Shown: positions 28,168-29,454 of the stretch, in pieces
Numbering within the stretch: the stretch's first letter is position 1
Layout of the letters: each line of letters begins with the position of its first letter
Origin: Candidatus Aenigmatarchaeota archaeon
GTDB taxonomy: Archaea > Aenigmatarchaeota > Aenigmatarchaeia > GW2011-AR5
Direction: 5' to 3'
DNA length: 39,732 nucleotides
Assembly (NCBI GenBank): GCA_016202875.1
Contig: JACQNX010000077.1
Span: 1 to 39,732 of the forward strand
The notes under the pieces: generated by a model
The model's input: the letters and a program-made list of their open reading frames with translations, nothing else
Told to the model about the DNA's origin: nothing
Databases searched by the model: none
Made by a program: the position numbers and the translations under genes

Positions 28168-29454
28168 GTGACAGATTTCACACAGAAAACAGAATTGAAA
28201 ACAAAAGAAAAAAACGCTGAGCAGAGACATTTGCCTGAAATTAATATTGGTCTCGTCGGACATGCCTAAAGGACTTCTTTAAGTACCGCAAACGTTGACC
28301 ACGGGAAAACGTCTCTTACGCAGGCACTGACAGGCAAATGGACAGACACGCATAGCGAGGAGATGAAGCGCGGGATAACAATAAGGCTGGGCTATGCTGA
28401 CGTGACATTCTACTATTGTGAAAAGTGCAAATCATACAGCAACACTAACAAATGTTCAAGGTGCTTTGGAGATGCCAACCCTGTGCGCACAGTCTCAATC
28501 ATAGACGCTCCGGGGCATGAGACACTCATGGCGACGGTGCTATCAGGAGCAGCGCTCATGGATGGTGCAATCCTTGTTATCGCAGCAGACGAAGAATGCC
28601 CGCAGCCTCAGACAGCAGAGCATCTAAAAGCGCTTGATGTTGTGGGAATAAAAAATATCATCATTGTCCAGAACAAGATAGACCTTGTTCCTGAAGAGCA
28701 AGCAAAAAAGAACTATGAACAGATTAAGAATTTTGTCAAGGGCACGATAGCTAAAGATGCCCCTATTATACCAATAAGCGCTATTCACAGTGCGAATATT
28801 GATATTCTTATTGAAACAGTAGAGAATAAAATAAAAACGCCTCAGAGAGATGAGAGCAAGCCTGCGCGGTTTTATGTTGCACGGTCTTTTGACATCAATA
28901 AGCCTGGCACAGCGATAAAGGACCTCAAGGGCGGGGTTATTGGGGGTTCGCTGACAGAAGGTGTGATTTCTGTAGGCGCTGGAATAGAGATAAAGCCTGG
29001 CGTGAAACAAGGTGACAAATGGATGTCGCTGCAGAGCAACGTTGTAGAGATCGTGCAGAATGGCGCACAAAATGAGGCAAGACCTGGAGGCCTTGTTGCA
29101 CTGCAGACAGAATTAGACCCTTCGCTTACACGGGCTGACGGGTTGTCGGGCGCGGTAGTAGGAAAGGTCGGGACGCTACCTCCTGCAACTGATGACCTCA
29201 AGATGAAAGTGACACTGTTTGATCATGTTATTGGCGTAGAAGGGAAGCAGGCTGTGAAGCCTATCAAGACCGGCGATGTGCTCATGCTCACAGTCGCAAT
29301 TGCCAAGACAGTAGGTGTTGTGACATCGGCCGCCAAGGACCATGTGCAAGCAAAGCTAAAGCTCCCTGTAGTAGTGGAGAAAGGTGACAAGGCAGCTGTA
29401 AGCATGCAAGTAGGCGGCAGGTGGCATCTGGTGGGATATGGAATAATAGCATGA
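28168..29454 (+). CDS. eif2g: Translation initiation factor aIF2 gamma subunit, interrupted by a 30-nt intron-like insert (exons 28168-28261 and 28292-29454; 418 aa after removal)
   Basis: GTG 28168 preceded by AAGAGG. ..PEINIGLVGH, then the insert with TAA 28267-28269, then [35 protein letters not shown], Zn knuckle CEKC..CSRC, DAPGHE, NKIDL, domains II and III. The ORF-track start at 28363 lacks the P-loop. Confidence 0.85.
28262..28291 (+). other. Candidate bulge-helix-bulge (BHB) intron within the aIF2-gamma coding sequence
   Basis: hBHBh'-like fold with 3-nt bulges ACA (28260-28262) and AAA (28290-28292) on opposite strands. They are separated by the helix 28256-28259/28286-28289. Excision restores GGA CAC GUU GAC CAC = GHVDH. 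Confidence 0.7.

Follow-up and report, generated by a model that had tools for sequence, protein, structure and literature searches.

A stop-containing 30-nt insert in the P-loop codons of aIF2-gamma as a probable bulge-helix-bulge intron in DPANN archaea

Why should the gene for aIF2-gamma, an essential protein, be interrupted within its P-loop codons by 30 nucleotides (nt) that contain a stop codon? The question is raised by contig JACQNX010000077.1 of the Candidatus Aenigmatarchaeota archaeon assembly GCA_016202875.1, analyzed here over its whole length of 39,732 nt (hereafter the window). Aenigmarchaeota are a lineage of the DPANN archaea. From comparison with related loci, the 30 nt at 28262-28291 are very probably an archaeal bulge-helix-bulge (BHB) intron of the aIF2-gamma pre-mRNA, predicted to be removed by EndA-type splicing.

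The whole aIF2-gamma gene spans 28168-29454 on the plus strand, with its coding frame interrupted after GLVGH. Exon 1 (28168..28261, +) runs from a GTG start through MTDFTQKTELKTKEKNAEQRHLPEINIGLVG and the first base (C) of a His codon, the putative intron (28262..28291, +; ATGCCTAAAGGACTTCTTTAAGTACCGCAA) comprises 30 nt without an open reading frame (ORF) inside the coding sequence, and exon 2 (28292..29454, +) opens with the AC that completes the CAC His codon and ends at a TGA stop. GTG 28168 starts a 33-codon ORF (MTDFTQ..GLVGHA; MTDFTQKTELKTKEKNAEQRHLPEINIGLVGHA) closed by an in-frame TAA (28267..28269, +), three codons past the start of the His codon, where translation of unspliced mRNA would halt after 33 residues. 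Instead of the whole gene, mechanical ORF listing gives a truncated 363-aa ORF from ATG 28363 (28363..29454, +) that lacks the P-loop. An earlier, model-made reading of the sequence (the initial annotation) had traced the true N-terminus to GTG 28168 and had noted the TAA within a 30-nt interruption; the TAA is seen in the sequence and the coordinates all check out.

In silico deletion of 28262-28291, the segment that the initial annotation proposed to be excised, yields GGA CAC GTT GAC CAC GGG AAA ACG and thereby an uninterrupted GLVGHVDHGKT in a 418-aa protein, as had been claimed (predicted spliced junction, GGACACGUUGACCAC; junction-spanning protein stretch, ...NIGLVGHVDHGK). The spliced protein scores 592.8 bits against TIGR03680 (cut-off 514.5), a family model that we take to be one of the archaeal phylogenomic marker genes, and exceeds both NCBIfam aIF2-gamma equivalog cut-offs. 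Residues 23-417 align with Methanocaldococcus jannaschii aIF2-gamma (PDB 1S0U) without a gap at the P-loop, and the N-terminus encoded by exon 1 aligns with that of intact relatives (e.g., P0002, P0007). Three other candidates were rejected: a group I or II intron (the insert is too short), an intein (a stop codon and only 10 codons) and a split gene for two polypeptides (no start codon before 28363).

The in-frame stop splits the gene, and with 39.7 kb of the genome in view the insertion might have killed this copy while an intact second copy works elsewhere. We regard such a disrupted pseudogene as very unlikely. Between the spliced coding sequence of the window and that of relative L006 (417 codons, exon 1 included), dN is 0.081, dS is 0.755 and dN/dS is 0.107, which indicates that aIF2-gamma is functional and under purifying selection. 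The gene has no further defects; its start, its stop and its linkage to the ribosomal protein S6e gene immediately 5' (27626..28153, +; 14 nt before the aIF2-gamma start) are conserved, and the S6e-aIF2-gamma order is also present in relatives. No second aIF2-gamma locus was found for the insert-bearing metagenome-assembled genomes (L013, L015, L059) among the best 80 loci kept in a scan of one genome per species. More than 20 lineages, moreover, have retained an insert of this kind at the same base, and their inserts show helix covariation and exact ORF restoration. When a spliced (cDNA-derived) or intron-less sequence identical to the protein of the window was sought, the best non-self match had 82% identity.

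An assembly or sequencing artefact, a concern of the initial annotation and a general possibility in metagenome assemblies, nothing more, can be given hardly any weight here: contig L001 from the Logan assembly of SRR12113385 has the identical 30 nt, and homologous inserts occur in JGI, ENA, NCBI and Logan contigs from many samples. The identical stretch in a second assembly, together with homologues from more than 20 datasets, argues that the interruption is real. Public protein P0001 is the truncated product, the same gene having been called on contig L001. Public calls of intron-bearing aIF2-gamma (P0001, P0086, P0088, P0100) are N-terminally truncated in general, at 363-380 aa vs. about 415, with the P-loop lost; gene callers thus create an annotation problem in the carrier genomes.

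The decisive evidence for an intron comes from related sequences and not from the single window sequence. At exactly this site we found 24 distinct inserts of 29, 30, 31 or 32 nt, most of them of a length not divisible by three, on contigs of Aenigmarchaeota and Woesearchaeota/Nanoarchaeia. The Aenigmarchaeota carriers are L002/L015/L104 (31 nt) and L003, L004/5, L013/L097, L090 and L092 (30 nt), while the Woesearchaeota/Nanoarchaeia carriers (29-32 nt) comprise L059/L093/L103, L086-L089, L091, L094-L102, L105, L107, L110 and L111. Calls for the distant relatives P0086, P0088 and P0100 are truncated just past the P-loop, and their contigs hold an insert at the same place. The genome scan recovered the insert in L013 (Aenigmarchaeota) and L059 (Woesearchaeota) and, as L015, the P0086 contig again; no Methanosarcinales locus had it, and only a small minority of DPANN loci did. 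Another 19 loci came from scanning metagenome contigs with a DNA pattern, and L105, L107, L110 and L111 came from look-ups done for other reasons. The tabulated boundaries are GGAC/A at the 5' side and /ACGT at the 3' side (L107: /ATGT), where the slash marks the predicted cut.

All 29 loci tested, with inserts of 29 to 32 nt, regain a single ORF when the insert is removed at the predicted BHB sites. The restored ORF is about 410-430 aa long where the contig holds the whole gene, apart from three that run on upstream into an endonuclease ORF (described below). These lengths bear on whether the insert could simply be tolerated as ten in-frame codons, read by stop read-through or by a reassigned TAA to give the peptide GLVGHA-X-RTSLSTANVDHGK. 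Thirty is divisible by three, and comparison with intron-less sister alleles shows a clean 30-nt indel just after CAT. Homologues of 29, 31 and 32 nt shift the frame, however, and so cannot be in-frame insertions or cases of read-through. TAA, TGA and TAG end 23, 23 and 11, respectively, of the 57 longest non-overlapping ORFs in the window, and ten extra residues would break a G1 motif that is contiguous in all matched aIF2-gamma structures. Translation through the insert accordingly has next to no probability in our view. Counted from the His codon, 18 of 20 variants, among them all nine 30-nt ones, reach a stop at codon 2-3 of the unspliced frame, so that unspliced mRNA could not yield a GTPase with a disrupted P-loop. 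This stop may have been selected because it keeps unspliced mRNA from being translated; another possibility is that it once terminated the upstream endonuclease ORF.

The RNA around the insert can be folded into the helix-bulge-helix-bulge-helix arrangement (hBHBh') expected of an archaeal intron. The outer, exon-exon helix h pairs 28248-28252 with 28297-28301 (5 bp) and 28254-28255 with 28293-28294 (2 bp). Its 5' strand (28248..28255, +; UGGUC, an unpaired U, CG) consists of Gly-Leu-Val codons, and its 3' strand (28293..28301, +; CG, an unpaired UU, GACCA) of the third base of the His codon followed by Val-Asp-His codons. The central helix H has UCGG (28256..28259, +) as its 5' strand and CCGC (28286..28289, +) as its 3' strand; 28257-28259 form three G-C pairs with 28286-28288, and C28289 stands unpaired opposite U28256. 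Around this helix lie two 3-nt bulges on opposite strands, ACA (28260..28262, +; predicted cut 28261/28262) and AAA (28290..28292, +; predicted cut 28291/28292). The inner, intronic hairpin h' (28263..28285, +) pairs 8 of the 9 positions of its arms (28263-28271 and 28277-28285) around the loop GACUU. All helices, bulges and the hairpin listed in the initial annotation are present. Its description of the motif as near-canonical is right for the topology and the bulges; the central helix of the window copy, with three pairs and a U.C apposition in place of 4 bp, is slightly relaxed. Cuts between the second and third base of each bulge give a functional frame in silico.

This fold is maintained by compensatory change across the inserts. 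We aligned 20 distinct variants with MAFFT, with gaps in the hairpin loop only, and 22 variants in a covariance-model alignment. Standard pairs occupy 83.5% of cells in the MAFFT alignment, vs. 26-49% when the 3' partners are slid by 1-3 columns, and 6 pairs changed on both sides; the covariance-model alignment gives 84.5%, 23-49% and 8 pairs, respectively. None of 500 shuffles attained the observed pairing or covariation score in either alignment. The outer helix (helix 1) is paired in 95.5% of cells, and in the inner hairpin (helix 3) 7 of 9 pairs change on both sides across the variants. The ACA bulge is invariant in all variants, and the third base of the 3' bulge, which is part of exon 2, is always A.

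Within the central helix, the third base of a Val codon pairs with an intron base (C28257:G28288 in the window), and this column is CG in 7 variants and UA in 15, never unpaired. Variants of the Aenigmarchaeota class have C:G here and those of the Nanoarchaeia class U:A; the exon position is synonymous and its pairing partner intronic. The Nanoarchaeia class has a perfect UUGG/CCAA central helix (13 variants tabulated) and the class of the window UCGG/CCGC with the U.C apposition.

The coding side of the motif is constrained as well. The exon flank GGTCTCGTYGGAC is present in 8 of 8 insert-bearing loci, all reached by routes blind to the DNA sequence (protein or endonuclease look-ups), vs. 0-1 of 73 insert-free loci (Fisher p = 3e-10). 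In the insert-free loci (n = 73) the synonymous positions of G-L/M-V-G-H-V-D-H vary freely, and at most one locus matches GGTCTNGTNGGACACGT. L111, found later, is an exception among carriers (GGGATAGTTGGAC) and has a weaker outer helix. In these loci, synonymous sites of the exon flank are constrained only in insert-carrying alleles.

A stable hairpin in the gap and a stop codon right after the presumed take-off region also superficially recall T4 gene 60, in which case the ribosome would take off at the His/Gly codon, slide across the hairpin and land before GUU by programmed bypassing. There is no matching landing codon, though: AAC (window) or GAC (Nanoarchaeia class), and not CAY/GGA, precedes GUU. 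Nor does bypassing require conserved, covarying bulges and an exon-intron helix in exact BHB geometry, and the BHB cut sites are constant over gap lengths of 29 to 32 nt. Bypassing therefore seems a most improbable account of the locus.

Taken alone, the window sequence supports a BHB intron only weakly above chance, and several observations weigh against that reading. The minimum free energy (MFE) fold from RNAfold adopts a neighbouring register with a U28256-A28292 pair, a 3-bp central helix and CAA as the 3' bulge; its cut sites would shift the frame. The canonical register lies 2.3 kcal/mol above this fold in the window copy, and only 0.8 kcal/mol above the MFE fold in the Nanoarchaeia class. 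The central helix of the window itself has only three Watson-Crick pairs besides the apposition. As a single sequence, the 71-nt fold is no better than shuffles (z = -0.99). A relaxed BHB scanner gives about 1250 matches per strand in the window vs. 1193 ± 43 in dinucleotide shuffles, which shows that the motif alone is not rare. The case for splicing, finally, is built on DNA comparison, and the enzymes required are not encoded nearby: EndA, RtcB and archease are not among the 30 larger ORFs of the 39.7-kb window scanned against Pfam, no tRNA was found in the window (ARAGORN, Rfam) or in 23 related loci (ARAGORN), and no Rfam family was found in the window.

What lifts the window copy above this background is position and family. 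A relaxed BHB match would fall by chance in any of the four P-loop-rebuilding registers with a probability of about 0.003, and a covariance model of the motif has one match in the window, at 28248-28301, with 65 bits. The initial annotation had also argued from the His codon, rebuilt from both exons, against a trivial insertion; this point is weak, because the same protein results from any of four 30-nt deletion registers, and the sisters without the intron read CAT/GTN with a clean indel. Its proposal of a BHB intron holds, and is made much stronger by comparative data outside its view: the same-site inserts, the restored ORFs, the covariation, the constraint on the exon flanks and the purifying selection. 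When relaxed scanner matches were used to look for other ORF-merging introns in the window, the roughly 200 candidates were pure noise.

By analogy with the established tRNA-intron pathway, from which the enzymes, the chemistry and the circular intron are taken, splicing might proceed as follows. The P-loop codons on either side of the insert would pair (GGU CUC G with C GUU GAC CA), the last exon 1 bases UCGG would pair with the 3' end of the intron (CCGC), and the middle of the intron would form the hairpin. The fold would present two 3-nt bulges on opposite strands, four positions apart, to the tRNA-splicing endonuclease EndA, which would cut between bulge bases 2 and 3 (28261/28262 and 28291/28292). 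An RtcB-type ligase would then join the exons and probably circularise the intron. The mature mRNA would read GGA CAC GUU GAC CAC GGG AAA ACG (G-H-V-D-H-G-K-T) and encode the complete 418-aa aIF2-gamma; unspliced mRNA would be translated only to TAA 28267, so that no protein with a broken P-loop would be made.

Several features of known archaeal splicing agree with this scheme. In tRNA introns at 37/38 the cut geometry places each cut between bulge bases 2 and 3 (PMC4090602), and it is this rule that brings the exons of aIF2-gamma back into frame. The ends produced by EndA, a 2',3'-cyclic phosphate and a 5'-OH, are of the type sealed by RtcB-type ligases (PMC4090602). With no splicing enzymes in the window or the related loci, the host machinery and its substrate range are assumed from known DPANN archaea (PMC5829648). 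The DPANN lineages surveyed carry EndA, and DPANN EndAs, including alpha4 types, have an additional loop (L3) whose presence goes with a larger number of disrupted tRNA genes (PMC5829648). The L3 loop fits cleavage of a slightly relaxed motif. That aIF2 production would depend on EndA and RtcB follows logically from the scheme; nothing found shows a regulatory role.

How did the intron reach this site? Its distribution is patchy on a neighbour-joining aIF2-gamma tree. By its best protein matches the window belongs to Aenigmarchaeota. Its closest relatives (82-87% identity; P0002-P0009 and L006) have an intact P-loop; the comparison with related genes that the initial annotation had called for finds the intron in many DPANN lineages and not in the nearest ones. 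The window carries the insert and its sister L006 (87% identical) does not; likewise L090 carries it, while L109/P0002 (95% identical protein) and L007 do not. It occurs throughout an Aenigmarchaeota clade (L002, L003, L004, L013), and in a Woesearchaeota/Nanoarchaeia clade carriers are intermixed with the non-carriers L049, L081 and L082. Intron-less sisters read GGTCTYGTCGGMCAT/GTYGAYCAY at the site (P-loop DNA of, e.g., L006 or L109: GGTCTYGTCGGMCATGTYGAYCAYGG). Presence and absence between such close relatives, with a clean indel after CAT, imply recent gain or precise loss.

Two other elements were seen in the same stretch of the gene. L020 (Aenigmatarchaeota UBA10154; 1-1530) has an intein of more than 500 aa (...VCGMGALIAHN/TSLTQ) in the same P-loop, after GHVDHGK, with its N-terminal end beyond the fetched locus. 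In L108 (1785-1835), an endonuclease-linked aIF2-gamma gene holds a 31-nt insert 6 nt further downstream (GHVD/31 nt/HGKT), with unique boundaries and a clear ORF logic; the BHB register it requires is thermodynamically poor (-0.5 vs. -13.6 kcal/mol for the MFE fold). The intein and the L108 insert are signs that the P-loop DNA of aIF2-gamma is a hot spot for such elements.

A possible agent of spread lies next to the intron in some relatives. In nine Nanoarchaeia-type loci (L086, L087, L089, L099, L105, L107, L108, L110, L111) an endonuclease gene of about 440 aa is located directly 5' of aIF2-gamma (L086 6666-8009; L087 81-1310; L105 2501-3826; L107 2501-3799; L108 394-1809; L110 649-1986; L111 497-1912; also in L089 and L099). 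The exon 1 frame of L086, L087 and L089 extends about 400 codons upstream into it. Two LAGLIDADG motifs (..GKWIGDRCGG.. and ..YAGLFEAEGS..) are present in the ORF, together with a marginal match to Pfam LAGLIDADG_3. A PDB sequence search with the endonuclease profile gave no match; the best structural match of an AlphaFold model (pLDDT 88) is I-DmoI (target-normalised TM 0.63-0.66, probability 1.0). The family is small, with 33 proteins at E < 1e-5 in a search of 5.8 billion proteins and 26 representatives at E < 1e-30 in an exhaustive search. About 24 members end in ...QPEvNIGLvGH(x), i.e., they run into aIF2-gamma exon 1 and stop in the intron, and all five members with their own stop codon that were looked up (L099, L105, L107, L110, L111) lie directly 5' of an intron-bearing aIF2-gamma.

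The endonuclease gene occurs in 0 of 73 intron-less loci vs. 4 of the 20 intron lineages that were identified by other routes (p = 0.0017), and all carriers are Nanoarchaeia-type. In the window no such gene lies between S6e and aIF2-gamma, and the other Aenigmarchaeota loci likewise have S6e directly upstream and lack the endonuclease gene. L110 comes from SRR12113384, by accession number the run adjacent to the one that yielded L001, the sequence of the window. Adjacency of the endonuclease gene to intron-bearing aIF2-gamma suggests homing. Tentatively, and at somewhat less than an even chance, the mini-intron may form, with the endonuclease gene, a mobile element of two parts, the archaeal BHB-type analogue of collaborative homing in phages. 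In such an element the endonuclease would cut intron-less P-loop DNA, and the BHB intron would split the target, shield its carrier and be copied together with the endonuclease gene, whose ORF is often in frame into exon 1 and ended by the intron's own stop codon. The window copy would be a survivor that has lost the endonuclease gene and is kept only because EndA removes the intron. Such a history, if true, would account for the occupation of one nucleotide position in two DPANN phyla, for the differences between sisters and for the intein in the same loop.

In the open literature searched, cbf5 of Crenarchaeota is the only archaeal gene with an mRNA BHB intron, in agreement with the initial annotation; its introns were reportedly studied by Watanabe in 2002 and Yoshinari in 2006, and reviews and structure papers to 2025 cite only those studies. 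The cbf5 introns occur in Desulfurococcales and Sulfolobales and are 16-44 bp long (Yokobori 2009, PMC2738675). Like them, the aIF2-gamma insert is a short, ORF-less element in a protein-coding gene, with a BHB-like fold built from exon and intron bases, excision (predicted for aIF2-gamma) by the tRNA-splicing endonuclease, and a patchy phylogenetic distribution that implies gain and loss. It differs in its host gene and its position within P-loop codons, in its superphylum (DPANN) and in the homing-endonuclease gene that adjoins it in some lineages; furthermore, cbf5 splicing was shown experimentally, whereas the aIF2-gamma intron is known here from DNA. With gene, phyla and companion endonuclease all different, we classify the aIF2-gamma intron as the same kind of element as the cbf5 introns and not as a homologue. 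The authors of the cbf5 work considered that intron too short to encode a homing endonuclease and possibly a deletion derivative of endonuclease-bearing introns (PMC2738675).

The tRNA and rRNA hBHBh' introns share with the aIF2-gamma motif the two 3-nt bulges, the 4-position helix, the flanking helices and the outer exon-exon helix; here the substrate would be an mRNA, and codons form the exon helix. I-DmoI is encoded by a BHB intron in Desulfurococcus mobilis 23S rRNA, and the endonuclease linked to Nanoarchaeia-type copies has, according to the structural model, the I-DmoI fold. Unlike that of I-DmoI, its gene is not inside the intron; in the relatives the ORF lies outside it, upstream of exon 1 and directly before the host gene. 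At 30 nt the insert is within the 11-129 nt reviewed for tRNA introns (PMC4090602).

In phage collaborative homing a free-standing endonuclease and an ORF-less intron share one target site (PMC3984707). The related loci resemble this arrangement in that an endonuclease gene adjoins a gene split at its most conserved site by a small ORF-less intron, and in that the presence of the endonuclease varies among near-identical introns. They differ in having a BHB instead of a self-splicing group I intron and archaeal hosts, and the window has no endonuclease gene. HAC1/XBP1 splicing is comparable as spliceosome-free removal of an mRNA intron, defined by stem-loops and sealed by a tRNA-type ligase (predicted here), where unspliced mRNA yields no active protein; there, however, the nuclease is IRE1 (followed by Trl1 or RtcB) and not EndA, and splicing is a stress-regulated switch. 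The P-loop inteins of ATPases and GTPases likewise occupy the most conserved motif of an essential protein, as the L020 intein does in this very loop, but inteins are removed at the protein level and the window insert is 30 nt with a stop codon.

With its probable intron, aIF2-gamma would, within the literature searched, become the second protein-coding host gene family for tRNA-type archaeal introns after cbf5, first reported in 2002. This second host would be an essential gene unrelated to cbf5, with the intron in a catalytic loop and hosts in a different superphylum. With more than 20 natural variants, the motif has in effect already undergone mutational analysis. Synthesis of aIF2, the carrier of initiator tRNA, would depend on EndA and an RNA ligase, and the link to an I-DmoI-like endonuclease offers a concrete, testable model for the origin and spread of mRNA introns.

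Other parts of the window hold features of separate interest. Eight paralogous Peripla_BP_6 substrate-binding protein genes lie within 25 kb (1841-3046, 3036-4211, 6056-7180, 13392-14504 on the minus strand, 17719-18873, 18897-20006, 20039-21142 and 23423-24559), a strikingly expanded set for a DPANN genome. Accompanying genes include at least one TrmB-family regulator (5242-5979, -) and branched-chain amino-acid ABC permeases (1077-1943, 8682-9581). A 74-nt direct repeat (89% identical) ending in GGAGG, at 1871-1944 and 3048-3121, lies just before two neighbouring paralogues of the binding protein, probably as a duplicated leader or ribosome-binding region, and mechanical ORF calls run through it. 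Just upstream of S6e and aIF2-gamma, the genes at 24635-25291 (-), 26075-26749 and 26742-27440 encode an HFX_2341/CARF-like protein near a pair made up of a helix-turn-helix protein and a DUF6036/AbiEii-like nucleotidyltransferase. The HFX_2341/CARF-like matches are N-terminal, with weak winged-helix matches near the C-terminus of the same protein, and the genes at 24635-27440 are possible defence or toxin-antitoxin genes.

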